A stretch of DNA of 44,788 nucleotides from a virus (lineage: Duplodnaviria > Caudoviricetes): IMG/VR virus record IMGVR_UViG_3300020045_004347, positions 1 through 44,788 of that record; one strand, 5' to 3'. The position numbers and the translations under genes were made by a program. Shown here piece after piece: positions 13,706 through 29,908 of this stretch. The first letter of the stretch is position 1. Each line of letters starts with the position of its first letter. The notes under the pieces were generated by a model. The model ran no database searches. It was given only the letters and a program-made list of their open reading frames with translations, and was not told the origin of the DNA.

Positions 13706-15300
13706 TAGCAAGTCTCCCAGTTTTTGAATTGCCCTTCTTGTTTATCCTCGAGGAGCAGCTGTGCGTACTCCGCTTCCTCTGTCCAATCAACACCCTTCTC
13801 CAGCTCTATAACAGGCCGACTGAACACTCTGTTGCCGAGATCGAACATCTTGATCATATGACTCTCTACGTCCATAGCATCCCAGTACTTTGATCGGGGA
13901 AAACCTAGGAGCTGCGTCTCTAGTGGGCCCTTAACATGGTCAGCGGAGTTGTGATAAATATTTCCCATGCGATAGAAAGGAGCAAGTCCTCGGATTCTGT
14001 CCTCTTTATCACCTGTGGCTTTGATCTCAACGAGTTCGTAGAACCGCTTCCGCTTGGTGGTGATGTACTGCTGGAAAGGGAACATAATGTAGTCTTCAAT
14101 ACCAGTTACCTCAACTCCAATTACGTTAGTCCCTAGCGTGTCAGCCATATCGCAGGCTTTCTCGAAGAGGTCATCCACCACCAGCTTCTCATTAACGAGA
14201 TCCCTTATGTAGATCTTCGCGAGTTTCGCATTGAAGGTAATGCCCATGATGGCGGCTTTCGCACCGTCGCCCTTCTTCTTCTTACATGGATCAATCAGCA
14301 CTACGGTCTCGCAACCTTGTAGTTCGTCTTTTATAACTGGATCACTCTCACTATAGTACTTGAAGAAAGAGTCTTGAAAGGTCGCATTCTCAGTTGCGAT
14401 AACAATATTCCTGAACTCCATGAAGAAGACGTCGAGTTGGCCACGAGCTTTGTAAGCTGCTGCCCTAGCTCTGATAGCCGCCGTACTGAGGAACTCCGGC
14501 CACCTACTCTCATAGAGATCATTACAAGCTTCGAGCCGGAGGTTATAGAACTTTTCCCGAGTCTCCAGAATGTGTTTCGCGGCATCGTCTAACCCAAACT
14601 CATCTACGTTGATTGACTCTCTCTCCTCGATGAGATTGGCGAGCAGTGAATCTTGATGAACAATGGTGCCAATAAGGATAAGACGCGAAGTGCTAAGCTC
14701 AGAGTTATCCATCGCACCCATAAGGTCAGAGAAAAACCACTCCTTAAGAGCTGCTCTAATCTTCTCATTCTTACTTTCGTCCTTATCCTCAAGATCATCG
14801 ACAATGAACAGGTCAGGGCGGAACTCTCTCCACTTAAGTCCTCGCACCTGGGAACCAGCACCCCTAGCTTGGATAAAGCAGAAAGGGCCATTCTCGTCAC
14901 TAAGCTCGATTTCACCAGTTTCCTCCGCCCACTTCACCCCCTTAAGGTTCCCGAACAGTTCCTTTATAAGGGGGTTATACTGGAGTTCTTGTGCTAGAAT
15001 CTTAACTTTCTTAGCTGCCTCACTTACGCTACTGGATACGTACACGATGTAGTGGACGTGGCGAAAGAGCGCTAGGCGCGCTGGGTACCCGAGGCCGATG
15101 ATGGTGGTCTTGCCGAATCCTCGAGGAGCCGCCAGACACACCAGACGATGCTCGGGGTTATCAAGGAACGAGAAGATATCAAAGTGAATCGGACAGAATG
15201 GCCTACTAATGTGGTGGTTGAAGAGCGTTGAGAGCGTATGCGCAGTGCTGTCAATGCACGGCAAGATCAGTTCATCTATTTCCTCTGGACGAAAGTGCAC
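13705..15300 (-). CDS. terL: Terminase large subunit
   Basis: APRGFGKTT Walker A, FIVDDLED Walker B, LIGT, VLIDP and WDAMD nuclease motifs. Confidence 0.93.
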   Translation of the reverse strand: MHFRPEEIDELILPCIDSTAHTLSTLFNHHISRPFCPIHFDIFSFLDNPEHRLVCLAAPRGFGKTTIIGLGYPARLALFRHVHYIVYVSSSVSEAAKKVKILAQELQYNPLIKELFGNLKGVKWAEETGEIELSDENGPFCFIQARGAGSQVRGLKWREFRPDLFIVDDLEDKDESKNEKIRAALKEWFFSDLMGAMDNSELSTSRLILIGTIVHQDSLLANLIEERESINVDEFGLDDAAKHILETREKFYNLRLEACNDLYESRWPEFLSTAAIRARAAAYKARGQLDVFFMEFRNIVIATENATFQDSFFKYYSESDPVIKDELQGCETVVLIDPCKKKKGDGAKAAIMGITFNAKLAKIYIRDLVNEKLVVDDLFEKACDMADTLGTNVIGVEVTGIEDYIMFPFQQYITTKRKRFYELVEIKATGDKEDRIRGLAPFYRMGNIYHNSADHVKGPLETQLLGFPRSKYWDAMDVESHMIKMFDLGNRVFSRPVIELEKGVDWTEEAEYAQLLLEDKQEGQFKNWETC

Positions 15301-15303
15301 TAC

Positions 15304-15495
15304 CTAGAACTGCCCAGACTGCGGCCGCCCAGTAAAGAAGCCTAAAATGGCAACGACTGCGGCCAGCACTAACTGCGCGATACCTTGGTTATTGAGCGAG
15401 GCGCCTTGAGATGCCTCCATAACAGGCTGAGCTGCGGTGGCAACTGCACCTAGCACACCCGCTATAGTTGTAACTACATCCTTATTAACTGACAT
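15304..15495 (-). CDS. Small two-TM membrane protein (holin-like)
   Basis: 63 aa with two hydrophobic segments; GGGAG SD. Confidence 0.6.
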   Translation of the reverse strand: MSVNKDVVTTIAGVLGAVATAAQPVMEASQGASLNNQGIAQLVLAAVVAILGFFTGRPQSGQF

Positions 15496-15507
15496 GTGAG
15501 TCTCCCT

Positions 15508-15735
15508 TTAGTTTCCCTGCGTTGAGTAACCAGCAAAAACGCCCATAGCCGCGACGCGTTCCCGTATCTCCGTGAGTGCCGCTGCGTTCTTTGTAGCCTG
15601 CTGGCCATAACCGAGCGTTGCATCAGCGGGGGTAGGGAGTGGCTTACTCCACGTCATCGTCCCTGCGTAGGCGAACGTAATAGCAGCCAGTAAAATCAAT
15701 GATGTAGCAACCAATACCATCTTAAGATGTTCCAT
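15508..15735 (-). CDS. Small protein with signal-peptide-like leader
   Basis: MEHLKMVLVATSLILLAAITFAYA; AAGGAG SD. Confidence 0.6.
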   Translation of the reverse strand: MEHLKMVLVATSLILLAAITFAYAGTMTWSKPLPTPADATLGYGQQATKNAAALTEIRERVAAMGVFAGYSTQGN

Positions 15736-15818
15736 CTTAGTTCTCCTTTTCGCCGGTATTCCTACAAATTCGGTGCCTTGCCACACAGGCCGGCTTGCCT
15801 ATGCTTACGAGGCGTGAG

Positions 15819-16457
15819 TTACTTAGTTCTTAACTGCCGCGAACCTAGGCTATCTACCTCGTAGTGGTAGTCAAAAGAAATTGCCAACGCGTCTGCGGCA
15901 TAGGTATCACTATCTGTGGAACTGGCTACTCTAGTTAGCTTGAACACTACCAAAGAAGAAAGTGCGACATTTAACTCCAATAAACCAAAATCAGTTACTA
16001 AACTACGTGCAGCTGTGTTGTTATCAATAGTCGTGTCGATTGGTACAGATACATCCAATCCAACTTGCACATACGGACCAAAGTCTCCGCCGCGCGGCGC
16101 GCTCTTAGCCTCCAATCGCCAAGTTACATTCCCGACCGCGTTAGAGGTTTTGCGCCAATGTATATGAGGATTAAGATTACGCACTCCCTGTGTCGCGTCA
16201 TGATTTATCTGGCAAACTATAACTGCTACATTATCTATCGAACCTCCGGCAAACAACCATCCCTCGCCTGCCGGGTCTATCGTAGGTGCTTGCGCAAGCC
16301 CGACTGGGTTAATCCCAGCTAGGATATTCACATCATCCTTAAAGTAGGTTCTATCCAGGTAAGTACGTAACTCCACAAGAACTAGCCGTAGCATCTCGGC
16401 TTGGATGTTCTGCTCGGAGGCCGTATATACAGTTGGTATTGCGTATTGCCATTCCAT
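15819..16457 (-). CDS. Beta-sandwich virion-associated protein
   Basis: 212 aa; PHIHW..GNVTWRLE..DTYAADA..DYHYE pattern. Confidence 0.6.
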   Translation of the reverse strand: MEWQYAIPTVYTASEQNIQAEMLRLVLVELRTYLDRTYFKDDVNILAGINPVGLAQAPTIDPAGEGWLFAGGSIDNVAVIVCQINHDATQGVRNLNPHIHWRKTSNAVGNVTWRLEAKSAPRGGDFGPYVQVGLDVSVPIDTTIDNNTAARSLVTDFGLLELNVALSSLVVFKLTRVASSTDSDTYAADALAISFDYHYEVDSLGSRQLRTK

Positions 16458-16477
16458 ATAGATACTCCAGCACTTAA

Positions 16478-16963
16478 CTAGGCGTAAGACGCCTCTATAA
16501 CTGGTATGTGCGTGAGACTCTTGAGCTTGTCTTCCCGAAGCGCCTTCAGCTCCTCTATCCGACTTGATGTGAGGTGGTGAGTAACTTCCTGCCGAACTGT
16601 GCTTACCTTCCCGTGGCCCTCACGGTCGAGCAAATCCATAGCGGCCTTGGCTTGCAGGGAGATGTGCGCCGGAGTTGTACCGTCCACGATATTCACTAGT
16701 AACTGTGCTCCGCTTTCTGCCCCCTTCTTAATAAGGGCATTGATGTCAACTGCGCGTTCCTCGCGACGAGTGCATAGGGAGGCCAGATACTGCTTGAAGA
16801 CTGGGGAGTTACAGATGATCGACATCCTGCCTGGGGTCATATCGTAGTCGCGGGCGATGTCGATCTGCCTGTGGCCGGCGATCAGCCTGCGCGCGATCTC
16901 TTTCTGCCTCTCCCATAGATGGGTAATCGGCTGCTTTGGGACAGACCTTGTAGGGTGACGCAT
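16478..16963 (-). CDS. Putative terminase small subunit (HTH)
   Basis: RQIDIARDYDMTPGRMSII HTH; AAMDLLDREG; first gene of the late arm. Confidence 0.6.
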   Translation of the reverse strand: MRHPTRSVPKQPITHLWERQKEIARRLIAGHRQIDIARDYDMTPGRMSIICNSPVFKQYLASLCTRREERAVDINALIKKGAESGAQLLVNIVDGTTPAHISLQAKAAMDLLDREGHGKVSTVRQEVTHHLTSSRIEELKALREDKLKSLTHIPVIEASYA

Positions 16964-17006
16964 GGTTGCTTCTCCAGTTGGGTGCGGCGCATTCAAACTA
17001 TGATAC

Positions 17007-17035
17007 ATAATGGCATACCCTAAGAGAAATGTCAA
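17007..17035 (-). promoter_or_regulatory. Sigma70-like promoter for the structural arm
   Basis: TTGACA-17 nt-CATTAT with TG extension. Confidence 0.55.
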
Positions 17036-17315
17036 TAGGTTTGTTGGGGATAGTACAAGAGAAAGTGAGATTGCACAATTAGTGCCTCAGTGCGACGATA
17101 ATACACCTGTAGGCGGTAGGGATGCAAACTACGAGACTACCGTTATAGTTGTCGTGCGAAACTTGCACAATCTAACTATAAGACCCGCGCCACAGAGGGT
17201 AATTGTGGGATTACTAATCTTTGCAAAAAAGCTCGAGATCGTTGTCTGGCCGTCCGCCCGCCGTGGTTCCCCGTGCCTAGGGGGGTCTTCGGCCATTTGA
17301 GGCGTCAGCGCCGCT

Positions 17316-17331
17316 TGGCATGTGCCGTGCA
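17316..17331 (+). promoter_or_regulatory. Sigma54-like promoter candidate for the early arm
   Basis: TGGCAT-N5-GTGCA with exact GG-N10-GC spacing. Confidence 0.45.
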
Positions 17332-17395
17332 ACATATAAGGTATGACAACGGGCACCACCATCACAATGGTGTGAGCCATCCGTCCACCGCCAAA

Positions 17396-17407
17396 GTTCT
17401 TTGATAA
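17396..17407 (+). promoter_or_regulatory. boxA-like antitermination element
   Basis: GTTCTTTGATAA preceded by hairpin CACCAT-CACA-ATGGTG (17357-17372). Confidence 0.4.
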
Positions 17408-17489
17408 CCGTAGCTCCCAGCCCGCAACAAGACCGGTTCGCCACCATCGTATGGAGCGTGTTATTCGGGGCGGCTCATGGGGGTAAACA

Positions 17490-17768
17490 TCGGATATACA
17501 TTTGAATATGCCGCCATGTTTAAAGGAGACTTTACACATGAAGACAATTTCAAAACAAGATATCGTTTTACTCGCCGAATTAGAAAACGAATACAATGCA
17601 ATTTTCGACCGCGCCGTATATGATAATGAAATGTATTTGAAGTGGGTACAGAAATATAACACGCTCTTGTTGCGTTATGAGTTACCGCTCGACACCACAT
17701 TCGACGAATTTTCCGCACTTATGACTAAATAAACCATAATATGGCGGTATACTCAAGTGTATATCCGA
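17490..17768 (+). repeat. 31 nt inverted repeat pair (17490-17520/17738-17768) enclosing one ORF
   Basis: 27/31 Watson-Crick pairs, 3 G-U, 1 A-C. Confidence 0.92.
17538..17732 (+). CDS. Small acidic early protein
   Basis: AAGGAG SD; 64 aa; AT-rich. Confidence 0.75.
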   Translation: MKTISKQDIVLLAELENEYNAIFDRAVYDNEMYLKWVQKYNTLLLRYELPLDTTFDEFSALMTK

Positions 17769-17815
17769 ATGACGCTAATCGGTGGGATTGCGCGAGCCGG
17801 TTAGCGCCAGGGGAT

Positions 17816-18332
17816 GTCAAGTCCCGCAATAGACCTCTCTCCTTTACGGTAGTTATTCCAACAACCAATAAGGAGGCAGGACCATGGAACTTACAACAAT
17901 AGAAGTGACGTTTGCGAAAAGGACAGAAGCACAAGTACAGGCGAAAATGGCAACCAGCCACGCCGATGTGCCGAAGGTGACGGCGACCCTCGACTTCAGC
18001 GAGCTCTCTGAGCTTGAGGTGCTACAATGGGCTCAACGAGGGGTTATAATCAGTATGCAGAGTAAGCTCGACAGCGGTACGATTACGCTAGCCAGCCTGT
18101 CCGGTAAGGTTATCAAAGTGCCAAAGCCGGGGGATAGGAAGCGCCTGTCCGACACGGACAAGATCAAGAAGATGGTTGCAACGATACTGGGCGTCGATGT
18201 GAAGGATATAACGCCGGAGCAACTGGCCGCAGTGCTGGGGAAGGCAATGGGCGGTGCTACGCCCGACAACGGCGAAGAGTAACACAGAACCACGAGGCCA
18301 CGAGTGGAGAGAGGTCGATTGAGGGACTTGAC
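17816..18332 (+). repeat. 27 nt inverted repeat pair (17816-17842/18306-18332) enclosing one ORF
   Basis: 25/27 Watson-Crick pairs; G-A and A-G mismatches flank a 4 bp helix. Confidence 0.92.
17884..18282 (+). CDS. Early protein, paralog of 23546..24004
   Basis: AAGGAGG SD; shared TIEV, KPG..R.R.S..DKIKK and EQ/DQ.AA motifs. Confidence 0.8.
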   Translation: MELTTIEVTFAKRTEAQVQAKMATSHADVPKVTATLDFSELSELEVLQWAQRGVIISMQSKLDSGTITLASLSGKVIKVPKPGDRKRLSDTDKIKKMVATILGVDVKDITPEQLAAVLGKAMGGATPDNGEE

Positions 18333-18339
18333 GACGGAC

Positions 18340-18587
18340 GTTCAATAGGTTGGTAGAGGTTCGGTCTACACGAAAGGAGGCCGGACTATGGCAAAGGAAA
18401 TAGTAACATTCACAGTAAGCATTGAAGTAGATACAGAAGAAGAGAATAGTGGTGCTAGTTGGTATGAGATGTTCCTTTCGGAATTAGAATATCAGATGGC
18501 GGAGAAAGGTTACGCCATACACGATACTTATTACGATGTAGAAGAAAACTAACCAAACCAGACCGAGCCTGTATCAACCTATTGAGC
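18340..18587 (+). repeat. 28 nt inverted repeat pair (18340-18367/18560-18587) enclosing one ORF
   Basis: 24/28 Watson-Crick pairs, 3 G-U, 1 G-G. Confidence 0.92.
18388..18552 (+). CDS. Small, very acidic early protein (54 aa, not in ORF track)
   Basis: AAGGAGG SD; MAKEIVTFTVSIEVDTEEENSG...YYDVEEN. Confidence 0.8.
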   Translation: MAKEIVTFTVSIEVDTEEENSGASWYEMFLSELEYQMAEKGYAIHDTYYDVEEN

Positions 18588-18660
18588 AGCGACGAACGGC
18601 TCGTGCCGGAACGGCGGAGTATGCGTTACACTTTCGGCACTGACGACCGCAAGGTCGCCA

Positions 18661-18690
18661 CTAACCATGCGAAGATTGCACAATACACTA
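18661..18690 (+). promoter_or_regulatory. Dispersed operator-like motif copy
   Basis: CTAACC ATGCGAAGATTGCAC AATACACTA. Confidence 0.7.
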
Positions 18691-18729
18691 ACGGCACTAC
18701 GTGCCGACTAACGGAAGGAGTACCAGAGT

Positions 18730-18912
18730 ATGATAATACGTTTCGTAGTAGAGATAGAACTCCCTGATGACGATGAGCTCCAGCAGGAGGGTTTGCTGGC
18801 TGTCCTCAGTGCGATGGAAAACGAAGCCGCTAAGGCAAATCTTGACCTGTACGACTCCCGCATCGAAGATGCAGATGGAGATGTGCTAGCGTGGGAGGTA
18901 TCGCTAGGTTAA
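18730..18912 (+). CDS. Small, very acidic early protein resembling 18388..18552
   Basis: AAGGAG SD; 60 aa. Confidence 0.75.
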   Translation: MIIRFVVEIELPDDDELQQEGLLAVLSAMENEAAKANLDLYDSRIEDADGDVLAWEVSLG

Positions 18913-18924
18913 GTAGGTGCCACA

Positions 18925-19236
18925 GGCACTATGCGAAGCGTAGGTGTAGGACACGTAGGCGTAGGACGTCTGTACCCCGCCATATGTTTCGTGTATGCCA
19001 AACGGCCTACGCTACCGTAGTACCTACACGTCAACCAGTAGGTGTAGTCTCTCCTATAGTGCTATACTCTTGTTCTTACTTTAAATATTTTTTTTTTTAG
19101 AATAATAGAGAGGCTCCAACTATAGGACACTGCACCACAGTGGGGAGGTGTAGGACATACATGGATACATGGAACCTATGCCAGGGTACACAATTCCTAC
19201 GCCTACACTTCCTACGCCTACATCACATAGGTTGCC
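18925..19236. other. Candidate replication origin: long imperfect palindrome around an AT/T-tract
   Basis: Arms carry repeated GTAGG/CCTAC; centre CTTTAAATA(T)n. Confidence 0.6.
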
Positions 19237-19284
19237 GCTGAGCGGACTTGCCTTACTGCGGCAAACAACAGATTGAAATAAATG

Positions 19285-19313
19285 TTGACATCCATCGACG
19301 GACGTGATATGTT
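19285..19313 (+). promoter_or_regulatory. Sigma70-like promoter
   Basis: TTGACA-17 nt-TATGTT with TG extension and A-rich upstream sequence. Confidence 0.75.
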
Positions 19314-19373
19314 ACACACGTAATAGAAATCAATCCCGGCGATGCAGGCCGCAAAAAGGAAAGGACGCTAGGC

Positions 19374-19964
19374 ATGGCAATCACAACAGAGCAAATGCAA
19401 CTACTTAAGGCGAGAGGTTTCTTACGGCCTCCAGCAAGGGAACGCCCACTCTCCAACAGCGAAGTGCAGAGAAGAGAACTTATCAAGAGGTATAATCAGC
19501 TACTCCTTTCAGCGGAACAACTCGAAGAGGCAATAACACCCCTCTTCCGGCGAGGCACGCACAAACTTAACACATCGAAAGTAACTACTCCAAGGGACGT
19601 ACAGAAGTACCTAGCAAAACGTAGCGCGAGGTACCGTTCTTACTTAGCGACTCGACTAAACTATGCCGGAGTGGATGATTTGTTGAAACCGCCGAAACTA
19701 TCCCCTTGGCACCTACGCGAAAAGCAGCGGCATCACCTTGTTTCAGTTTGTCTCAGCAAACAAGCAACCGTAGCACAGATACAGAAAATGCTCCTTAAAT
19801 TTGGGTTGTTTACACATGAGCAACAAGAAGAGCTGCTAGGTTGGTTGGATCAGTACTATCACCATGTAATTGACCTTGAGCACCTTAAAGTATCTGCAAC
19901 CCGTGACTTGGTTTCACTAGACGACCTAGCACTTGTAAAGCAACAGATGCACCTCCGCAAGTAA
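19374..19964 (+). CDS. Hypothetical basic protein
   Basis: 196 aa after a promoter and AAGGA SD. Confidence 0.65.
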   Translation: MAITTEQMQLLKARGFLRPPARERPLSNSEVQRRELIKRYNQLLLSAEQLEEAITPLFRRGTHKLNTSKVTTPRDVQKYLAKRSARYRSYLATRLNYAGVDDLLKPPKLSPWHLREKQRHHLVSVCLSKQATVAQIQKMLLKFGLFTHEQQEELLGWLDQYYHHVIDLEHLKVSATRDLVSLDDLALVKQQMHLRK

Positions 19965-20018
19965 CCGGCCAGCTTGCTGGCGAGGACTCGCAACGCCACT
20001 ATAAAGGAGAATATTAAA

Positions 20019-20180
20019 ATGGCAGAAATTAATATCAATACTAGGTGTAAGAACTGCGGAGAGTGCCACGGTGAACATAATGCACTCTCGGATGGTTATG
20101 GTAAGTACAATGCTTGCCCTACCACTGAAATACCAAAAACATGGCGTGAAGACTCTACATTTGAAGCGATTGAAGACTAA
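20019..20180 (+). CDS. Small Zn-binding protein
   Basis: CKNCGECHGEH..CP; AAGGAG SD. Confidence 0.65.
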   Translation: MAEININTRCKNCGECHGEHNALSDGYGKYNACPTTEIPKTWREDSTFEAIED

Positions 20181-20234
20181 CCATCGAGCACAGCGAGACA
20201 CTCCGCCCTTCGGGCGACGAAAGGAACGCTAACA

Positions 20235-20378
20235 ATGGACCTCAAAGTAAGAATACACTATCTCCGCCTGCACTTTAACACCACAAAGTCTTACGACACT
20301 CTCGCACAGTTTGTGCGACTACAACTACAACGCGCGGCACAGCCGCAAAGAAAGGACACTACGCAATGTCAACCCTAG
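20235..20378 (+). CDS. Hypothetical 47 aa protein
   Basis: AAGGA SD; ORF fills the gap between neighbours. Confidence 0.4.
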   Translation: MDLKVRIHYLRLHFNTTKSYDTLAQFVRLQLQRAAQPQRKDTTQCQP

Positions 20379-20842
20379 ACGAACAACTCACTGCACTCCT
20401 CAGCAACGGTAGTAAGGAACTCCTCGCAGCCCTCGCCAAAATGAGCGGGGTTAGCGCCGCCGAAAGCAAATCGCATACTCCCCGCAACGGTGTGAAGGAG
20501 CGTCGTGCTCTGGAGGAGCATCCTCCTTACATCAACGCCACAACGGTTTGCTGCGCGCTCTGCGGCAGCGTTAGTACAACCCACATAGTTATGACGTACA
20601 AACCAGACCTCCAAGGCTTTACGACAGGCTACAGCGTGCTACCTTGTGAGGAGGCGCCGCCTTACCCAACCCGCAAACTCCACATCCGTGCCGACAGTTG
20701 TGCGTCTTGCACCTCAGTGCTGGAGAGTCTCCCGAAGGAGTACCTCGTCAAGATGCTCATCACCCGCGCCAACAAGCTCTCCGCTGCGCTAGAGTTTAAC
20801 GCCCTTGAGACGTTAGCGCGACGCGCAACTTCCTTAGATTAG
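20366..20842 (+). CDS. Zn-ribbon protein
   Basis: CALC and CASC pairs. Confidence 0.7.
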   Translation: MSTLDEQLTALLSNGSKELLAALAKMSGVSAAESKSHTPRNGVKERRALEEHPPYINATTVCCALCGSVSTTHIVMTYKPDLQGFTTGYSVLPCEEAPPYPTRKLHIRADSCASCTSVLESLPKEYLVKMLITRANKLSAALEFNALETLARRATSLD

Positions 20843-20931
20843 CCACCGAGTCGAAGCGAGCTATCTGCACAACGGCACGAACAGTAACCATGCAAGTTTT
20901 GCATAACACACTACTGAAAGGAGAACGAAGA

Positions 20932-21171
20932 ATGAACCCACGACTACAGGACTATGCCCGTGAACAGTTAAAAGAAGGTCTCACCCAACTACCGGATACT
21001 TGGCACCGTACTTTTAAACTCATGTACGGCAGGGATAACGGGAAGCATAGCGTTGAGGACGCCATCGCACTTGAAATCAACGACGTAGTAGATATAATGC
21101 CGGAAGATAAGCTAGATTGGGCTATGCAACAAGTTGAAAACAGCCTTGCTAAGTTGGCTAAGACAAACTAA
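20932..21171 (+). CDS. Hypothetical protein
   Basis: AAGGAG SD; FKLMYG..KLDWAMQQV. Confidence 0.7.
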   Translation: MNPRLQDYAREQLKEGLTQLPDTWHRTFKLMYGRDNGKHSVEDAIALEINDVVDIMPEDKLDWAMQQVENSLAKLAKTN

Positions 21172-21214
21172 ACAAACCGGCCTCGTAGAGGCACACCACA
21201 AAAGGAGACTTACA

Positions 21215-21412
21215 ATGATTACCTTAACACCGGAGGAGTTCACAGAACTGCAGAGCGAGGGCGGCGGGATTTGCTTCGCTTGCCAAGAACGTACCTACGG
21301 CATTGAGCCAGATGCCCGACGCTATCGCTGCCCGGAATGCAACGAAGAGCAACTCTACGGCATAGATGAACTCCTCCTAATGGGGGAGTTGGATATTGAG
21401 TTTGAGGACTAA
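21215..21412 (+). CDS. Zn-finger phage protein
   Basis: GICFAC..IEPDARRYRCPEC..LYG. Confidence 0.75.
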   Translation: MITLTPEEFTELQSEGGGICFACQERTYGIEPDARRYRCPECNEEQLYGIDELLLMGELDIEFED

Positions 21413-21473
21413 CTAAAAACGAGCGCAGCGAGCGGGATTCGCCGCCTTGCAGCTCAAGCGGAGAACATTAACT

Positions 21474-21623
21474 ATGATTCAAGTAATGATATTCATTGAG
21501 AAGAACCTAGAGCAGCCTGGCTGTTACTTTACGCTTCCACTGTGCTGGATAGACGACGGACTGCATAGAGTACACCCAATAGCAATATCCCGCGTTGAGT
21601 GGGAAAATCAAGGAGGTGAGTAG
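21474..21623 (+). CDS. Hypothetical 49 aa protein
   Basis: GGAG SD; ORF fills the gap between neighbours. Confidence 0.45.
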   Translation: MIQVMIFIEKNLEQPGCYFTLPLCWIDDGLHRVHPIAISRVEWENQGGE

Positions 21624-21721
21624 TGCTAACTGAAACCGACAAAAGCCGACGCAGGCACGCTACTCCTCCCCGCCGTGATAGTTCTGATTGGCTATCTACC
21701 CAGCCGACGGCACCGTAACCA

Positions 21722-21750
21722 CTAACCATGCGTTTATCGCATATTAACTA
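21722..21750 (+). promoter_or_regulatory. Dispersed operator-like motif copy
   Basis: CTAACC ATGCGTTTATCGCAT ATTAACTA. Confidence 0.7.
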
Positions 21751-21769
21751 AGAAAAAGGAGACCTAGCT

Positions 21770-22054
21770 ATGAAACCAACACCAGGAACTAAAGTAACAA
21801 TCCGCAGTTGGGAGGATATGGAGGCACAGTATGGGCTAGACAAAGATGGAGACATCCGCGACACTGAGTGCGACGGGCTTGCCTTTGTGCGCCGCATGAG
21901 GAAGTTCTGCGGCACTACGCAGGAGGTTGCAGCCTATAACGATCCGGCATGGCCTAATGAGTTCGAGGTAAAAGACGGCGGAATTTGGCGCTTCCACGCT
22001 AACCACACCGAGGAGTTTAAGGCACTGCCCGAGGAGGCCTCCAGTGAAGAGTAA
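21770..22054 (+). CDS. SH3-like small phage protein
   Basis: GTKVTIRSWEDM..FVRRMRKFCG..IWRF. Confidence 0.7.
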   Translation: MKPTPGTKVTIRSWEDMEAQYGLDKDGDIRDTECDGLAFVRRMRKFCGTTQEVAAYNDPAWPNEFEVKDGGIWRFHANHTEEFKALPEEASSEE

Positions 22055-22241
22055 CTCCCGAGACACCTTCACACGACGACTACGCGCTATAGCAGAGAGC
22101 TTCACAGAGCGCTCCCTACCGGAGGACCTCGCCCTCTCCATAACCCTCTGTTACGCATCTACCTTCCCCGCAATCCAGCGCCAAGCCGCTGCCGATAAGG
22201 TGATGCTCTTCTACTACGCAGGAGGCTCTACATGTATTTAG
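22044..22241 (+). CDS. Hypothetical protein
   Basis: GGAGG SD, GTG start, overlaps the previous gene. Confidence 0.5.
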   Translation: MKSNSRDTFTRRLRAIAESFTERSLPEDLALSITLCYASTFPAIQRQAAADKVMLFYYAGGSTCI

Positions 22242-22315
22242 GGTTAGGCATCTTCGGTACAATACTAATGCTAGCGGTAATACTATGCGCAATCTTAATA
22301 AGGAGACCTTAAGAA

Positions 22316-22471
22316 ATGAAAACCTATAAACTCCCAGACGGTTCCCGCGTCTATGCGATCGGCTACTCAATAGCCGACTACCTGTGCTTTATTATCGTAC
22401 TAACCCTATTCGCCTTAGGCCTTGCGGGGATGTTCGGCTGGGTTACACTGCTCGCAGTACTGTTTGACTAG
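22316..22471 (+). CDS. Small membrane protein (51 aa, not in ORF track)
   Basis: AAGGAG SD; long hydrophobic C-terminus. Confidence 0.6.
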   Translation: MKTYKLPDGSRVYAIGYSIADYLCFIIVLTLFALGLAGMFGWVTLLAVLFD

Positions 22472-22486
22472 AAAGGAGGAACTAGC

Positions 22487-23122
22487 ATGAAAGGCAAAGT
22501 ACTAAGTGTTCGGGTGAGCACTATAAACATCGCCAGCGCACGGGAGCTATGTACCCTGACCGGTATCCACACCGCTAACATGAGCACGGCAGTAGGGAAG
22601 GCACTAGCCCTTCTCCTGGAGAACCTCCGCGCTAACGGTACTCTCGCGGCGCACACCCCCGAAAGCGCTAGCGCATACCTACGAGAGACGCTCGGGCAGG
22701 CCGCTCTCGTAGGTAGTGACTTCGACCTTACGGTTACACCGTCGAGGGCAAGTCCCGGCGAACGAACTCGAGTCCCGCAGGGCGAGCTACCTGCAGGAAC
22801 TCCAAAGAACTTAGCTCAACAGTACTTTCAAGAATTACCTAAGGGATTGCAGCTTTCACCAGTTCCGGAATATGGAACTGAACAGATTCTCATCGACAGT
22901 GCGGTTACGTCGGAGGACTACGCGAAGAGCGTGGACGCCCTAAGCGACTACCAAACTTTCGATGAGTCCATCGTAGCCGACATCCGTCTCCAGCAAGAGC
23001 TAGAGAGTGAGGAGCTCCTCTCGGCACTCCTTGTAACCTCACACAGGAGGGACGACCACGAGGTAGAGCTGATAGACCCGGCGAGTATGATTAAGGAGAC
23101 AAAGAAGGAAGGAGGTGAGTAA
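22487..23122 (+). CDS. Hypothetical protein with RHH-like N-terminus and acidic C-terminus
   Basis: VLSVRVS beta strand followed by two helices; AAGGAGG SD. Confidence 0.65.
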   Translation: MKGKVLSVRVSTINIASARELCTLTGIHTANMSTAVGKALALLLENLRANGTLAAHTPESASAYLRETLGQAALVGSDFDLTVTPSRASPGERTRVPQGELPAGTPKNLAQQYFQELPKGLQLSPVPEYGTEQILIDSAVTSEDYAKSVDALSDYQTFDESIVADIRLQQELESEELLSALLVTSHRRDDHEVELIDPASMIKETKKEGGE

Positions 23123-23125
23123 CCT

Positions 23126-23380
23126 ATGAACGACGAAGATAAACTCATGTGGATGTTCACTGAGGTTCACGGAAATATAACTGGCGCCTGCTATACCGAG
23201 ATAGTTTTGGACGATGAGGAAAATCCGATAGCCGTAGAGGTACGAAAAAACGGAAATCTCTGCTGGAGTGCTGCCAAAGTAGATTTAATGTTTGACTATC
23301 TCACTAGGCACCTAACCGCTGAAACCAAAAGAGGAGGAACCGACGCCGAAAGGCTAACGAAAAAAGTTTCGCCAGGTTAA
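23126..23380 (+). CDS. Hypothetical protein
   Basis: GGAGGT SD; 84 aa. Confidence 0.65.
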   Translation: MNDEDKLMWMFTEVHGNITGACYTEIVLDDEENPIAVEVRKNGNLCWSAAKVDLMFDYLTRHLTAETKRGGTDAERLTKKVSPG

Positions 23381-23388
23381 AATAATTG

Positions 23389-23417
23389 TTGACATCTGCC
23401 TCTGCGTGTGTTATGTA
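23389..23417 (+). promoter_or_regulatory. Sigma70-like promoter
   Basis: TTGACA-17 nt-TATGTA with TG extension; same TGTTGACATC..ACACG frame as the 19285 promoter. Confidence 0.7.
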
Positions 23418-23545
23418 TAAACACGATGAACGGCGGAATTTAAAAAGTTTGAAAAGTGCTCGCAGACGCGAGGAAACGGACTTCTCTTAGAGAAGACGCA
23501 AAGAGGGTGACGACCGAACCGTCCAACGAGATAAGGAGTTACAAA

Positions 23546-24004
23546 ATGGCAAACGAAACTGAAACGGCAGCAAAGATTGGCGGCGTAAAAACTATTGAGG
23601 TTGCCGCACCTAAGACCGCAACTGGCACAGATGAGAAGGGTGCAAAGACCGGCTACCGCAAAATGACCGTCGAGTTCAACTTCGGCGACAGCCTCCAGGA
23701 AGCAATCGATGAGTTCGGTGAGGATGTAGTGTTCGCTGGCTTCGTCTCCTCGGCAACAATCGACCTGCAGAACTTCATCCGCACGAAACTTGAGGAGCGC
23801 GTCAAGGTTGACGGTGCTGACGGTAAGAAGGTGGAGACCCCAGACGCTGCAAACAGTGACGCCGATATCGCCACCGCATTCGCAGACTGGAAGCCAGGTA
23901 TCAAGAGCCGCGAGAGAGTAAGCCCTATGGACAAGATCAAGAAAGCCCTCGGCGCTCTCTCTGAAGACCAGAAAGCCGCCCTGATCGCAAGCCTTACGGC
24001 TTAG
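23546..24004 (+). CDS. Probably abundant early protein, paralog of 17884..18282
   Basis: TAAGGAG SD; own promoter and terminator; 152 aa. Confidence 0.85.
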   Translation: MANETETAAKIGGVKTIEVAAPKTATGTDEKGAKTGYRKMTVEFNFGDSLQEAIDEFGEDVVFAGFVSSATIDLQNFIRTKLEERVKVDGADGKKVETPDAANSDADIATAFADWKPGIKSRERVSPMDKIKKALGALSEDQKAALIASLTA

Positions 24005-24012
24005 TACTAACG

Positions 24013-24114
24013 AATTGCCTTGTGCAGGCTAGATAGGAAGTCTAAGGGTGCTGTAGCTTTGCTAGCAAGCCATACCTGGGCGGGAACAAACGATGCTATC
24101 GGCATAAGGCAATT
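24013..24114 (+). ncRNA. Structured ncRNA candidate 1
   Basis: 13 bp closing stem AATTGCCTTGTGC/GCATAAGGCAATT with internal hairpins. Confidence 0.6.
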
Positions 24115-24219
24115 GCCCTGTTAATTCACTTAGCCAATAAGAACTGGGAGGCGACTCATTGACACTAAATAGTCGGTAGTTATCTCAATGAGCAGGATGG
24201 CAATCTGCACAGGGTACAA
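24115..24219 (+). ncRNA. tRNA-like ncRNA candidate 2
   Basis: 7 bp GCCCTGT/ACAGGGT stem plus ACAA end; T-arm-like 5 bp stem with 7 nt loop; non-canonical loops. Confidence 0.6.
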
Positions 24220-24220
24220 C

Positions 24221-24254
24221 AAAAAGGTGGGACGTAAAACTCCCACCTTTTCTT
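24221..24254 (+). terminator. Intrinsic terminator
   Basis: AAAAGGTGGGA-loop-TCCCACCTTTTCTT. Confidence 0.85.
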
Positions 24255-24353
24255 ACGCCGTTATGTTGTGTATTTCCCCACAATGAGCCACAAGAGCAGT
24301 ACTAACTGCACCGCTAGGCGCTAAATAATCCAATAAGGAGAAGGAGAACGGTT

Positions 24354-24608
24354 ATGGTTAAGGAGATAAATCAAATACTGAAAGAGTTGAAGAAACACTG
24401 CCCCGAGGGTAGTGGCTTCTCGGCCAGCGCGGAGCTTGCAACTTGGGCAGACGCTCAAGTCAGGTACACTGCACATGTGTTGTTTCCGGACGGCAGCCCT
24501 TTTAAGAATATCTGTGAGATATCTATGGAAGATCACAGTGCCTTGATTACTAAAATGCTGAATGAGTACGATCGCCAGAAGGAGGCCACACATGGCAAAG
24601 GGGAATAA
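24354..24608 (+). CDS. Hypothetical protein
   Basis: AAGGAG SD; 84 aa. Confidence 0.65.
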   Translation: MVKEINQILKELKKHCPEGSGFSASAELATWADAQVRYTAHVLFPDGSPFKNICEISMEDHSALITKMLNEYDRQKEATHGKGE

Positions 24609-24846
24609 GTTAGTATTCCTGTATCCGCTAGAAATACACGGAATCAAGCCAGGCAAAAAGTACCGTATGTACTGTAAGTGTAACACAAAGGGGCACGCTG
24701 GAATTGACTATGAAGCAGGAAAGTATGTATACGCGCAGTGTAGTAGAGACGATGCGTGTCCCATCTGCGGCGCCAGTTACTTCACATTCGTTGAGAAAGG
24801 AGGGGCTAAAGCTAATGAGTGCAATCTTCGTACCAAACAAGGGTAG
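24592..24846 (+). CDS. Cys-rich Zn-binding protein
   Basis: CKC..C..CPICG; AAGGAGG SD. Confidence 0.65.
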   Translation: MAKGNKLVFLYPLEIHGIKPGKKYRMYCKCNTKGHAGIDYEAGKYVYAQCSRDDACPICGASYFTFVEKGGAKANECNLRTKQG

Positions 24847-25141
24847 CCATGACTACGGCGATGCAAGCCGCTACGGCACTGTGCAGTACATCACTAAAGG
24901 AGAACAAAATAGATATGCGATCGGCACTATGGTGCGGAACTGGGCGAAGGCTATCCGGCTCTCTTCACCTGACGACTACATTCTCCTCAGCAGCCTCACG
25001 AACCTCTGCTGCATAGGTTGTGCTCTCTTTGCGATGAAGCATCGCCGTCTGAACCTCCTGCTCTTCCGGAACGATAAGTACATAGAGAGGAAGCTCGACC
25101 TCCGCACTGTCCTTGAGGAGGAAGACGATGGGCAAGCCTAG
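24815..25141 (+). CDS. Conserved-looking alpha/beta phage protein
   Basis: IFVPNKGSHDY..YG..DDYILLS; AAGGAGG SD. Confidence 0.7.
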   Translation: MSAIFVPNKGSHDYGDASRYGTVQYITKGEQNRYAIGTMVRNWAKAIRLSSPDDYILLSSLTNLCCIGCALFAMKHRRLNLLLFRNDKYIERKLDLRTVLEEEDDGQA

Positions 25142-25391
25142 ATCTGCCCCAGTCCTCAACACTGGTACTTGTGGTTGGTGCGGGGAGCCACTAGTCCAGA
25201 GGACTGATGAACCCTACCATAACTATCGGAAACGCCGCACCTGTAACAAAGAACACGCAGCGCTCCTGCGGGAGTCTACGGCTAAAGCAACACGCATCTT
25301 AACACCTACAGTTGAGGCTCGCTATCACGTTAAGAAGATTGAGAAGGGAACCGCAGAGTTTGCGGCACTTACCGCACTTTACACTAAATAA
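25128..25391 (+). CDS. Zn-finger protein
   Basis: CGWCG..TCNKEH. Confidence 0.65.
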   Translation: MGKPRSAPVLNTGTCGWCGEPLVQRTDEPYHNYRKRRTCNKEHAALLRESTAKATRILTPTVEARYHVKKIEKGTAEFAALTALYTK

Positions 25392-25406
25392 TCTAAGGAG
25401 TAAATC

Positions 25407-25637
25407 ATGGAAATACCAGTGCAATATAGTAGTTGGGTCGAGGAAATACTTACCAATGAACTTCACGCAACTCAAACAAAACGACTCATGGCTGTGATTC
25501 TTGGCTTAGTGCCTTTTAAAGATGGGAATAGCTGGTGTGTTCTTTACGGAGAAAATCTCCAAGTTGGTATCGCTGGATTCGGTGATACTCCGTATAAGGC
25601 CATGCAGGCATTTGAGGACGAGTTTCATAAGGCATAA
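25407..25637 (+). CDS. Hypothetical protein
   Basis: DGNSWCVLYGENLQVGIAGFGDTP; TAAGGAG SD. Confidence 0.7.
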   Translation: MEIPVQYSSWVEEILTNELHATQTKRLMAVILGLVPFKDGNSWCVLYGENLQVGIAGFGDTPYKAMQAFEDEFHKA

Positions 25638-25678
25638 CGAAAATATAACTTTACACTAAACAATAAGGAGCAACGCCG

Positions 25679-25840
25679 ATGCAACCTGAGGAGTGTAACT
25701 TAAGAATGCAAGAGAGGAACAACGAAGCAATCGTTGCCCTTCACCCACACAAGGCTCTTCTTTCCCAGATCAAACCAAGGTTTATGGTTATTCGGAAGGG
25801 GTGGGGACGGTTCAAGCGTATTGCGGAGTCTTTCGACTAA
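25679..25840 (+). CDS. Hypothetical 53 aa protein (not in ORF track)
   Basis: TAAGGAG SD; ORF fills the gap between neighbours. Confidence 0.5.
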   Translation: MQPEECNLRMQERNNEAIVALHPHKALLSQIKPRFMVIRKGWGRFKRIAESFD

Positions 25841-25866
25841 ACCATGCGATAATTGCATATTAACTA
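25837..25866 (+). promoter_or_regulatory. Dispersed operator-like motif copy
   Basis: CTAAACC ATGCGATAATTGCAT ATTAACTA. Confidence 0.7.
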
Positions 25867-25883
25867 GATAAGGAGATATTGAG

Positions 25884-26921
25884 ATGAGTACAATAAATGC
25901 AGGGGATATGCTCAATAAGCCTGCTACGATCAAAAGCAACATCGGCATCGTCACCGCCAGTGGCTACCACTTCTACGACAACTCCACCCTCAACGACTTT
26001 AGGGTTTGTTTCCGACGGGGTTACTTTTCCAAGTTACGTGACTTCGAGCCGATTGATCCAGTTAAACGGCGCGGACTCGAGTTCGGAACCTGCTGGCACG
26101 CTGCGATGGACGTAGTTTGGGGAAGGGCTAAGGAGCTAAGTGATGAGGCTCTCCTCAAGGCCGCCCACGAGAACTTTATGATCGCATGGAACAAGAGTCC
26201 GATATCGCAGGCAGATGATTTCGATCTTTATCCTCGTACTCCAGGACGTGCAGCCGAGATGCTCGTGGAGTACATCTCCCGTTTCGCTGAAGACATCCGG
26301 CGCAAGACTGTAATCGCAATCGAGTCGCCTTTTATCGTCCCACTGACCGACGCCGACGAAAAACTGATGTACATCGGTAAGCTGGATAAAGTAATCCGAG
26401 ACGCGGACGGGGTACGGTTCTGGGATCACAAGAGCGCAGCGTCTTTCAGTAATGCTTGGGTTGATAGTTTCAGTCCCAATAGCCAGTTCGACGGCTACTC
26501 CCACGCTGGCCACATGACGTACGGCGACGAGTTCCAAGGTTGTATGATAGACGGAGCGCTCGTGCAGAAGGCTAAGGTAGACTTCAAGCGCATACCAGTT
26601 AGCAGGATAGCCGCGCAACTTGATGCTTGGCTCTATGAGACACTCTACCTAATCCAGGAGATCCAATACCATGAAAACCTCCTTGCTGAGTATCGTGCTG
26701 CTGGGAGTCGCGATACATGTCTGCGGTGCTTCCCCAAAAACACCAGCCGTTGCACTGAGTACTACGGAACCTGTCCGTACCTTGAACTTTGTAAGTTCCA
26801 AGACAACCCAGACCTTTACCCCATCCAAGAGCTGGTATATCATGAGCACAAGTGGACTCCTTTTAATATCGACGAGACGGCAACAGGTGAGTTTAAGGTC
26901 GAGGTTGTGGAAGGAGAATAG
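25884..26921 (+). CDS. PD-(D/E)XK Cas4-like/RecB-family exonuclease
   Basis: N-terminal Cys, GTCWH, E..GKLD..DHK, QxxxY and C-terminal C..CPY..LC cluster. Confidence 0.85.
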   Translation: MSTINAGDMLNKPATIKSNIGIVTASGYHFYDNSTLNDFRVCFRRGYFSKLRDFEPIDPVKRRGLEFGTCWHAAMDVVWGRAKELSDEALLKAAHENFMIAWNKSPISQADDFDLYPRTPGRAAEMLVEYISRFAEDIRRKTVIAIESPFIVPLTDADEKLMYIGKLDKVIRDADGVRFWDHKSAASFSNAWVDSFSPNSQFDGYSHAGHMTYGDEFQGCMIDGALVQKAKVDFKRIPVSRIAAQLDAWLYETLYLIQEIQYHENLLAEYRAAGSRDTCLRCFPKNTSRCTEYYGTCPYLELCKFQDNPDLYPIQELVYHEHKWTPFNIDETATGEFKVEVVEGE

Positions 26922-26960
26922 GCTGGAGTTTTACAAACTAAAGTACGGAGGTACTTAGCT

Positions 26961-27209
26961 ATGGACTTTGTGGATGCTGCTAATTACGGCGACGTAGCAA
27001 TAAAACCTTGCCCATTCTGTGGTAAAGTAGATGCACTGAAGTTAATAGATTCAACTGAGGTGTATCCGGAAGATAGAGACGAATCTTTTGTGATGTATCA
27101 AGTCGTCTGTGACGCCTCGACTGACGCCTGTGAGGCTGGTTGCGGTGCTTGCAACGGGTGGCAACGTAGCCAAGCTGAGGCCATCATTAACTGGAATATA
27201 CGAAACTAA
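26961..27209 (+). CDS. Lar-family (restriction alleviation-like) Zn-ribbon protein
   Basis: KPCPFCG..VVC..CGA..EAIINWN. Confidence 0.75.
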   Translation: MDFVDAANYGDVAIKPCPFCGKVDALKLIDSTEVYPEDRDESFVMYQVVCDASTDACEAGCGACNGWQRSQAEAIINWNIRN

Positions 27210-27237
27210 CTAAACCCAAACGAAAGGAAACCAAACC

Positions 27238-28071
27238 ATGCCAATGATCTCAGAATGCAACACTCAAGACAGAATACGATTCCTCCTGTATGGTAACATC
27301 GGTAGCGGGAAGACGACTCTCCTGCGCACCCTGCCTGGCAAGAAGTTTATTTACATGTTCGACCCGAGCGGGCGCTCCTCTCTGAAAAGCGACGACAACA
27401 TCTGGATCGAGGAGTTCCTGCCGGACTCCCTGCCTATCAACGTCACGACGATTAAGGGGGTGACTAGTAGCACCTCGGTTATCAACTACGAGATATACAA
27501 ACTCTGGGAGGCGGACTTCAATCGTCGCATCTCGGAAGACTGGTTCAAAAAGGAGGGTTTCAGTGCCATCTGTTTCGACAGCCTCACAACGTTCGGTGAT
27601 ATTGTCTTTGATCAAATCCTCGCCCTTTCTGGAAGACTTGGTAAGAGTCCCGAGATTTCAGATTACGGAATGCAAGCGAATGCTATCAGCAGAGTTGTTC
27701 GTCTGGCGACAGCCCAGGACTGTGTCGTCGCTTTTACGGGGCATGAAAAATCGGCACAAGACAAACTCCTCCGTACTATCAGTAATCAAATCATGGTTCC
27801 AGGGCAACTCACGCAGAAGCTCCCAATACTCTTCAGTGACATCTACCACTGCAAGGTTGATCGCGTTGGCTCGACGGTGAAGTACATCGTTGAGACTGTG
27901 CCGAGTGAGCTCTTCCCAACTGCTCGCTGCAGTATGCAACTGCCACCCGAGGTAGACGTAACCCTTAAGGCAGGCGAGAGCGACCTCACCAAGCAAGGGC
28001 TCGGTAAGATACTCCGAGAGAAAGGAGTTTGGACGGATGTCAAAGAAGCCTCGCAAACAGTACAGTCCTAG
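27238..28071 (+). CDS. Sak4-like/AAA_24 ATPase (recombinase)
   Basis: LLYGNIGSGKTT, FDSLT and FTGHEK motifs; between nuclease and SSB. Confidence 0.85.
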   Translation: MPMISECNTQDRIRFLLYGNIGSGKTTLLRTLPGKKFIYMFDPSGRSSLKSDDNIWIEEFLPDSLPINVTTIKGVTSSTSVINYEIYKLWEADFNRRISEDWFKKEGFSAICFDSLTTFGDIVFDQILALSGRLGKSPEISDYGMQANAISRVVRLATAQDCVVAFTGHEKSAQDKLLRTISNQIMVPGQLTQKLPILFSDIYHCKVDRVGSTVKYIVETVPSELFPTARCSMQLPPEVDVTLKAGESDLTKQGLGKILREKGVWTDVKEASQTVQS

Positions 28072-28288
28072 ACAACTAGCCGTGCAGTTCAACTTCGCCC
28101 ACTACGCACGCATACGAGGTCACTGTCTCGACCTAGCAAACATAGCAAAGGCTTTCGATAGGGCTGATATCAAACAAGAGATACGCATTATTGAACTAGC
28201 CTTGCTAGTCGAACTTGAAGCTCAGTGCGCGGCTATACGGAACAAACCGCCAGATGGGGGTTTAAGCTATGAAAACAGTTCTTTTTGA
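28037..28288 (+). CDS. Hypothetical protein
   Basis: AAGGAG SD; 83 aa. Confidence 0.55.
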   Translation: MSKKPRKQYSPRQLAVQFNFAHYARIRGHCLDLANIAKAFDRADIKQEIRIIELALLVELEAQCAAIRNKPPDGGLSYENSSF

Positions 28289-28424
28289 TTGTGCTCTTCC
28301 GTTAAAACCTGGTGAGTATAAAACTATAGTTACCTACATAAATAAGGAAGGTCTACTTCATATCCGCGTAGGCCTTCAGTACGAAGATACAGATCTGTTA
28401 GTGCAACCACGGAAGCGCAAGTAG
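28269..28424 (+). CDS. Hypothetical 51 aa protein
   Basis: ORF overlaps the previous gene and fills the gap. Confidence 0.45.
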   Translation: MKTVLFDCALPLKPGEYKTIVTYINKEGLLHIRVGLQYEDTDLLVQPRKRK

Positions 28425-28460
28425 CGCCCACGAGAGGCGAACGAAAGGAGGTGAGTAAAA

Positions 28461-28580
28461 ATGCCAGCTAACGTAAAGTGTGAATCTACGGAGTGTAAAC
28501 ACTGTGACTTGGAGTCGAACTGCCAAGCCCCAGAAATCGAGATCGACACAGATGCAGAGTGCCTCAGCTTCGAGGAGTAA
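28461..28580 (+). CDS. DUF1540-like Cys-rich mini-protein (39 aa)
   Basis: VKCESTECKH..CQAPEIEI..ECLSF; AAGGAGGTGA SD. Confidence 0.7.
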   Translation: MPANVKCESTECKHCDLESNCQAPEIEIDTDAECLSFEE

Positions 28581-28668
28581 CTACACCGACCATCGACAGC
28601 GAAACTAACCGATCACCTAACTATCCCAACCAGAGATAGGTACAAACAACCAACTAAGGAGTAACAAA

Positions 28669-29118: not shown

Positions 29119-29170
29119 AGAGCTCAGCTTCAGGATTGGTATGAAGATGAACCTTTCTTGAGGTAGTAAC

Positions 29171-29270
29171 AGTTAGGGGTGAGGCGAAGATCGGTATCTA
29201 AGGTGTATGGATTCAAGTGCGTCCGTCGTCGATTGCCTACCTTATGCCAGTAGCCTCACCCCTATTAACT
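29171..29270 (+). ncRNA. Structured RNA candidate 3
   Basis: Closing stem TAGGGGTGAGGC/GCCTCACCCCTA with nested inner stems. Confidence 0.6.
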
Positions 29271-29291
29271 TTAGTAAAAAGGAGCTGCCGA

Positions 29292-29531: not shown

Positions 29532-29532
29532 G

Positions 29533-29882: not shown

Positions 29883-29908
29883 CCATGCAATTCCCGCACA
29901 ATCAACTA
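29879..29908 (+). promoter_or_regulatory. Dispersed operator-like motif copy upstream of the ParB-MTase gene
   Basis: CTAACC ATGCAATTCCCGCAC AATCAACTA. Confidence 0.7.

Follow-up and report, generated by a model that had tools for sequence, protein, structure and literature searches.

The region at positions 17316-17480 (+) of IMGVR_UViG_3300020045_004347 would seem to be a conserved leader, heading an early unit of four genes that is laid out like a bacterial rRNA operon, and for this whole chain of interpretation we would put the probability at about 0.62. The window, that is the entire stretch of 44,788 bases that was analysed, is classed by IMG/VR as a complete phage genome with terminal repeats. 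Within the leader a sigma-54-type promoter, a 5' hairpin and a boxA follow one another ahead of protein genes enclosed by long complementary arms; related phages preserve these motifs together with their order and spacing, exchange one promoter type for another in front of boxA, and favour sense-strand pairing in the arms. It is likely that the phage borrows the host machinery for rRNA transcription and folding for its first mRNAs, which are probably then cut out of the transcript. That the phage mimics rRNA in this way had been suggested in a preliminary description of the DNA, and the comparative evidence supports the leader type, the promoter type and the looped genes, but one long-range pairing that belonged to the suggestion has had to be given up.

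The genome encodes a portal, major head protein, terminase, family A polymerase, Sak4 and primase, and its best phage match in GenBank is Desulfofustis phage LS06-2018-MD01 (TerL 32.5%, gene order similar), itself described as a metagenomic genome with a host predicted from CRISPR spacers (bioRxiv 10.1101/2023.02.06.527410). Our guess is that the host is a sulfate reducer or a relative of one. The family A DNA polymerase (32101-34839, +) has an N-terminal uracil-DNA-glycosylase-superfamily domain, and at 29908-31347 ParB-N is fused to a DNA methylase. The leader sits between the leftward gene for a terminase small subunit-like protein (TerS; 16478-16963, -) and the first rightward genes. TerS is divergent from the leader and was the anchor for the comparison of loci; its homologues are found at the same place in relatives, including the annotated terminase small subunit of OP947158. 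The leftward packaging genes have a sigma-70-type promoter at 17007-17035 (-; TTGACA-17-CATTAT, 10/12), identified purely as a match to the consensus, and the next promoter after the unit, at 19285-19313 (+), is again of the sigma-70 type, with no boxA behind it. The window yielded no tRNA and no Rfam match, so the rRNA or tRNA that defines an rrn operon is not encoded in it and the loops hold protein ORFs; Rfam searches of five relatives gave two chance-level matches only.

Loci for comparison were gathered by TerL searches of viral contigs, metagenomes and genome bins, with the best 80 of 475 viral relatives being used. A TerS homologue was present in 74 loci, 51 were kept at <80% TerS identity, and six with <900 nt of early-strand sequence were dropped, leaving 45 non-redundant loci including the window. 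Reference rRNA leaders and spacers were taken from genomes of the phylum of a bin titled Nitrospirae bacterium, which may not be the phylum of the host. These reference leaders carry G-[TGA]-TC-[TA]-TTGA-[AC]-AA-[CT]-T-[AG]-AATA behind a sigma-70 promoter, and no sigma-54 promoter was found in the rrn leaders examined.

The boxA core of the phage leader, GTTCTTTGATAA at 17396-17407 (+), is of the rrn type and lies 54 nt after the predicted start, without the YTGAATA extension that follows boxA in many relatives and in rrn leaders. Scored with a matrix of 16 distinct rrn boxes, which were collected with a loose core filter of our own making and are thus not wholly independent, it is the top site on both strands of the genome at 16.3 bits, the next best reaching 12.7; its T at position 10 is absent from all 16 training boxes. 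On the early strand 20/45 loci, the window included, have a boxA of at least 12 bits no more than 1200 nt from the start of TerS, as against 1/45 on the opposite strand, and the two strands differ in score with a Wilcoxon p of 1.2e-5 (45 loci). A 19-nt extended boxA of at least 15 bits occurs in 14 of the 45 loci on the early strand and in none on the opposite strand, and 17/45 loci beat their own shuffles at p <=0.05. The 12-bit threshold is missed by 25 of the 45 loci, which is partly due to the region examined, because in some loci other genes separate TerS from the leader. What had been called a boxA-like motif is borne out by these scores; it matches the rrn boxes, lies on the transcribed strand and follows shortly after a predicted promoter, and on this sequence evidence the boxA can be expected, with good confidence, to work.

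At rrn loci boxA is found at or in the base of the 16S leader-trailer helix. A stem could be mapped in 20 phage loci; the distance from the start of boxA to the first 5' arm is 4-27 nt in 10 of these and 83-247 nt in the rest, including the window, where the arm lies 94 nt away and does not abut boxA. The E. coli boxC word is absent from the window leader, and the host may use another boxC. A simple scan of 15000-30000 found no intrinsic terminator on the + strand; with no terminator found for it to override, a role of boxA that involves Rho or folding is therefore more likely.

The consensus for sigma-54 promoters is TGGCACG-N4-TTGCW. A predicted -24/-12 promoter of this type, TGGCATGTGCCGTGCA, is found at 17316-17331 (+) with two mismatches to the consensus, GG at 17317-18, GC at 17329-30 and N10 between them, and the start is predicted near 17342. 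The preliminary description had claimed a sigma-54-type TGGCAT-N5-GTGCA with GG-N10-GC spacing here, and the site is indeed in this position and is conserved in place in seven loci. Such a match is not unique within the window, where 18 sites have <=3 mismatches and two of them only one; it is regarded as more than chance because it is conserved in place across relatives. Seven loci (the window, L003, L004, L066, L067, L069 and L138) have TGGCAY-N5-DTGCA at a distance of 66-88 nt ahead of boxA. Pairwise identity is 0.9 for each of the two elements, 0.32 for the spacer and 0.27-0.37 for the flanks, and thus GG/GC and an invariant 10-nt spacing are kept while the spacer drifts. As this pattern was shaped on the matches themselves, the textbook consensus was also applied. 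When <=3 mismatches are allowed, 7/25 boxA loci have it in the interval 55-100 nt ahead of boxA, as against 34/4542 background windows; at <=2 mismatches the figures for this interval are 5/25 and 5/4542.

The -12 element across these loci is mostly ATGCA or GTGCA, not tTGCt, no sigma-54 activator domain (PF00158) was detected in the complete genome or in five relatives that are 43-75% complete, and no enhancer (UAS) or IHF site is common to the loci examined. All of this would suit an arrangement in which GG-N10-GC is a docking site for an inactive sigma-54 polymerase or a phage regulator and the unit starts elsewhere, which we consider improbable given that the site sits exactly where relatives have their sigma-70 promoter and the two do not occur together: a sigma-70 site is found <=145 nt before boxA in 0/7 sigma-54 loci and in 14/18 other boxA loci. 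Furthermore, the distance to boxA fits a start 40-62 nt before boxA, and a consensus scan found no other + strand promoter match between 15805 and 19285. We expect, with good confidence, that the leader has a sigma-54 promoter. Sigma-54 is described as strictly requiring an activator (PMC4641369), and with none found in the phage genome a host activator is implied. A phage promoter of this type had been thought unusual, and it is rare, yet there is a precedent in YuA (PMC10914365).

Ahead of boxA, in the position of a boxB, the leader has a 5' hairpin, CACCAT-CACA-ATGGTG, at 17357-17372 (+; about 17345-17387 in the predicted fold), which pairs with a probability of ~0.98 when the leader is folded. 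Shuffling this segment produces a perfect 6-bp hairpin in 8% of cases. The segment from the start to boxA folds better than its shuffles in 17 of the 18 loci that are long enough (22 are listed), with a mean z of -1.7, and no sequence is shared among the hairpins before boxA; the 6-bp hairpin noted previously is present, but it is as a structure and not as a sequence that it is conserved. The proposed 7-bp pairing of GTGAGCC (17372-17378) with GGCTCAT (17472-17478) did not survive, as the letters are there but the probability is 0.0 in both folds and a like helix arises in 74.5% of shuffled leaders. A pairing of boxA with 17455-17470, which was weak and seen in one minimum-energy fold only, was likewise set aside. 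The leader as a whole is no more stable than shuffles (z +0.85), and 17340-17800 gives a z of -1.6. The description of the leader as free of ORFs is right in so far as no RBS-led + strand gene begins until ~17538, but short mechanical ORFs do overlap it.

The order of hairpin and boxA also bears on the idea that boxA is part of a lambda-type nut site and works with an N-like phage protein, possibly g2, the product of the second cassette described below. Lambda and mEp021 provide known cases of boxA in phages, and g2 is early, conserved, without a family match and carries a small basic motif. In four relatives (L003, L004, L067 and L138) there is, furthermore, a small conserved and structured RNA element with GGTGARAAWCCTGAAA between boxA and the first gene; its flanking stems vary, its letters are variant in L138, and it gave no Rfam match in the three of its loci that were scanned. 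A nut site would have boxA and then boxB with a conserved purine-rich loop, whereas here the hairpin precedes boxA, which is the rrn order, no conserved boxB-type loop is found 3' of boxA, and in 10/20 loci a long arm comes directly after it. No match to an N-type protein was obtained from Pfam or PHROG among the ORFs scanned, although such proteins are short and divergent. We consider a nut site improbable, slightly more so than the docking site, and the rrn-type leader remains the preferred reading.

Behind this rrn-type leader the preliminary description had placed looped-out genes, and three ORFs are indeed each found within arms of 27-31 bp. Cassette 1 (17490-17768, +) has arms at 17490-17520 and 17738-17768 (31 bp) around a 64-aa ORF (17538-17732); cassette 2 (17816-18332, +) has arms at 17816-17842 and 18306-18332 (27 bp) around the 132-aa g2 (17884-18282); and cassette 3 (18340-18587, +) has arms at 18340-18367 and 18560-18587 (28 bp) around a 54-aa acidic ORF (18388-18552). 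Their pair probabilities, as means from a fold of 17342-18935, are 0.92, 0.86 and 0.96 respectively. A fourth small acidic ORF of 60 aa (18730-18912, +) has no long arms around it and is the probable last gene of the unit. The first start codon comes 142 nt after the boxA start, strong Shine-Dalgarno sites stay inside the cassette loops, and the arms of different cassettes have no sequence in common.

Single RBS-led ORFs are enclosed by 28 stems in 24 of the 45 loci, as scored blind to strand, and read on the sense strand these gene-enclosing stems contain 66 G-U and 11 A-C (p 1e-10). Other inverted repeats contain 128 G-U and 108 A-C, with some misfiled gene stems amongst them. From the bias of 66:11 it follows that the arms pair as sense RNA; they are long, flank genes and are selected as RNA, as leader-trailer helices are. 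The same bias is difficult to reconcile with arms that are DNA-level cassette borders, whether for recombination or as cruciforms, accompanied by leader motifs that are chance look-alikes. The 18 sigma-54-like sites of the window do illustrate how common single short motifs are, and cassette genes differ among relatives, but boxA is specific in both strand and position and the arms of the cassettes are unlike one another in sequence, so that this explanation is largely refuted and we give it very little credence.

A closer contender accepts that boxA recruits Nus and holds that the helices stay uncut, either as protected gene loops in one transcript or as a means of holding translation back in the manner of suhB. 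The boxA upstream of suhB is described as repressing translation via Nus factors (PMC5725501), and the length of the helices here is compatible with RNase III without demanding it. Here every enclosed gene is closed off by a 27-31-bp helix of its own and keeps its Shine-Dalgarno site in the loop, as in pre-rRNA, and this, together with the distance from boxA to the first start codon, makes uncut loops unlikely, if less so than the other alternatives. Cutting of the helices by RNase III is moderately favoured.

The family of g2 is the one most often enclosed by stems, and it extends to 1502 clusters at E 0.001, its neighbours in the Atlas being unnamed viral clusters. It has no Pfam, PHROG or PDB sequence family, a search with the single protein found no viral relatives, and the alignments of both g2 and TerS are too divergent for pattern searches. 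The model of g2 (mean pLDDT 81.6, pTM 0.49) has no structural match of Z >=5 among 48,161 chains, which is no proof of a new fold. A 152-aa gene at 23546-24004 (+), behind its own sigma-70-type promoter, is probably a distant paralogue of g2 because the families overlap weakly; L033 matches both families, and a second gene of L138 matches the g2 profile. Following the 152-aa gene there are ~250 nt without a long ORF (24005-24255, +), with a terminator-like hairpin seen by eye at ~24221-24251, which are a candidate non-coding RNA with no Rfam match.

In the 45 loci boxA and a stem are found together in 21, boxA only in 4, a stem only in 6 and neither in 14, an association that includes three stem loci added by hand and is inflated by loci whose region misses the leader. 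The preliminary description had made its case hang in part on whether the motifs recur in related phages; boxA and the sigma-54 site do recur, but the two nearest relatives by TerL (L002 and L026, 60-61%, both AT-rich) have no sigma-54 site, no boxA and no clear gene-enclosing stem, and the design is therefore dispensable in some lineages. In the TerL tree, which holds 42/45 loci, six sigma-54 rows fall into a supported group of 8 together with L002 and L026. L070, the sister of the sigma-54-containing group, and the outer lineages use sigma-70, and the sigma-54 state is thus nested among sigma-70 lineages. L024 has a sigma-54 match, without a boxA at that distance.

When 2.9 million viral contigs were scanned for the promoter together with boxA, 42 stretches were obtained, 27 of them distinct, and with the box inverted as a control there were 21 stretches, not de-duplicated, so that about half of the 42 matches may be chance. 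Eleven of the scan loci carry TerS or g2 homologues (six of these loci are new), and gene-enclosing stems are present in 11. Five of the new loci form a second, distant lineage, which has a long branch to itself in the TerS tree. L189, L205 and L215 have a sigma-54 site, boxA and gene-enclosing stems with no TerS or g2 homologue within 2.5 kb, and may be further lineages of the same design.

Elsewhere in the genome a near-palindrome, TGCR-N5-YGCA, occurs in eight copies, all on the + strand (12710, 17155, 18668, 20891, 21729, 25845, 29886 and 36511), mostly just 5' of ribosome-binding sites and in most cases followed by ACTA. It is likely to be an operator or a phage-specific promoter, and the copy at 17155-17170 (+), 161 nt before the sigma-54 site, is a candidate operator or enhancer. 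A pattern search of the 44 loci besides the window did not find it; L003, L010, L069 and L138 have another repeated palindrome, TTGAAA-W-TTTCAA, in comparable places. The unit is bounded by a non-coding 57-nt inverted repeat around a T11 run (18940-19221), which has three G-U and three A-C and is equally stable on both strands. In 11 other loci, L002 and L026 among them, a T run lies about as far from TerS, and the repeat is likely to be a DNA-level element, a candidate origin or packaging element. Before the promoter a stretch with a C-run and a G-run (17265-17290) is a possible terminase site. This C-rich landmark appears similar by eye in many relatives; a strict pattern for it matches 8/45 loci, the window not being one of them, and the contig ends give no sign of a genome terminus at the leader, and for these reasons we do not claim that the leader is at a genome end. 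The sigma-70-type promoters at 19269-19313 and 23373-23420 (+) have in common an A/T-rich upstream stretch of 24 nt, 88% identical, that resembles UP elements. Finally, an intergenic region at 29119-29280 (+), closed by the arms AGTTAGGGGTGAGGC and GCCTCACCCCTATTAACT, is a candidate structured RNA recognised by eye.

In E. coli boxA is reported to be necessary and sufficient for the rrn complex and boxB to be dispensable, and in the structural model the complex holds the 5' RNA whilst the gene loops out until the trailer arrives (PMC10250234, PMC8632103); NusB of Bacillus is reported to bind its own boxA variant (PMC13753749). As the phage leader reproduces the rrn order and spacing, a chain of sigma-54 initiation, Nus recruitment and pre-rRNA-like processing is the most likely course of events. 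Host sigma-54 polymerase, activated by a host enhancer-binding protein, would start near 17342, and NusB-S10 would bind boxA and, judging from rrn operons and from the conservation of the site, build an rrn-type complex without an N protein. On the rrn models this complex would hold the 5' RNA at the exit channel, block Rho and help each leader arm to meet its trailer arm. Least certain are the last steps, in which RNase III would cut the 27-31-bp helices to give single-gene mRNAs with paired, protected ends, and these in turn might give fast and lasting expression of g1-g3. A stronger version, that the first unit fires only when the host sigma-54 activator is on and that the Nus complex leads to excised, end-sealed and possibly circular mRNAs that escape decay, is speculative and on the whole we doubt it. 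Were it true, the whole infection would be gated on the state of the host, and a class of promoter found on none of the rRNA operons examined would feed a line of rRNA folding and processing, as a swappable part before a fixed boxA module.

It would seem likely that the phage leader works like an rrn leader without being an rrn operon. Both have a promoter, a 5' hairpin and boxA and then the 5' arm of a gene-enclosing helix, and the letters of the bacterial boxes match those of the phage, with the YTGAATA extension in many phage relatives. In contrast to rrn operons the phage loops hold RBS-bearing protein genes, with no rRNA, tRNA or E. coli-type boxC, and its promoter is of the sigma-54 type where the rrn leaders examined have the sigma-70 type. 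The nut sites of lambda and mEp021, used with N or Gp17, are similar in having boxA near the start of an early operon and are described as recruiting host Nus factors through it (PMC11893012, PMC10250234), but in the phage hairpin and boxA come the other way round, there is no conserved boxB loop, a search of the ORFs for an N-like gene found none, and genes are enclosed by helices, which nut systems lack. The boxA sites at suhB and the CRISPR arrays of gammaproteobacteria are reported as rrn-type, N-independent boxes outside rRNA operons (PMC5725501, PMC13753749); these are host genes, and no leader-trailer helix is described around them in the parts of these papers that were available. Pseudomonas phage YuA (PMC10914365) and Desulfovibrio vulgaris (PMC4641369) are reported to have -24/-12 promoters with GG-N10-GC that are read by host sigma-54. 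Here, unlike in those cases, the site heads the first early unit, is joined to boxA, and alternates with sigma-70 in one slot across a phage group. Early mRNA of T7 is processed by RNase III, and the sites in both T7 and SP82 are local hairpins between genes. For SP82 such processing of early mRNA is documented in PMC4838370. Here too the RNase III of the host would be expected to split an early phage transcript of several genes, but the helix arms are 190-460 nt apart and flank a gene.

The occurrence of boxA in phage nut sites was already known, as was the sigma-54-like promoter of YuA. Within a literature search that took in few subscription papers and no supplements, no publication was found on a phage rrn-type leader with gene-enclosing helices, nor one on a phage that joins an rrn-style boxA leader with a sigma-54 promoter. 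In the parts of the literature available, phages depend on an N-type protein to use boxA, and boxes of the rrn type are employed for rRNA, suhB and CRISPR arrays; the known use of boxA is widened by a large group of uncultured phages in which protein genes have a probably N-independent leader of the rRNA type. These phages also provide natural constructs for the question of whether the rrn Nus complex is mainly for read-through or for joining distant arms, and the exchange of sigma-54 and sigma-70 before a constant boxA tests the indifference of the complex to the initiating sigma factor. A further implication of the promoter exchange is that the first step of a lytic phage may depend on an activator of its host, and helix-closed mRNAs could be a design for stable expression in bacteria.
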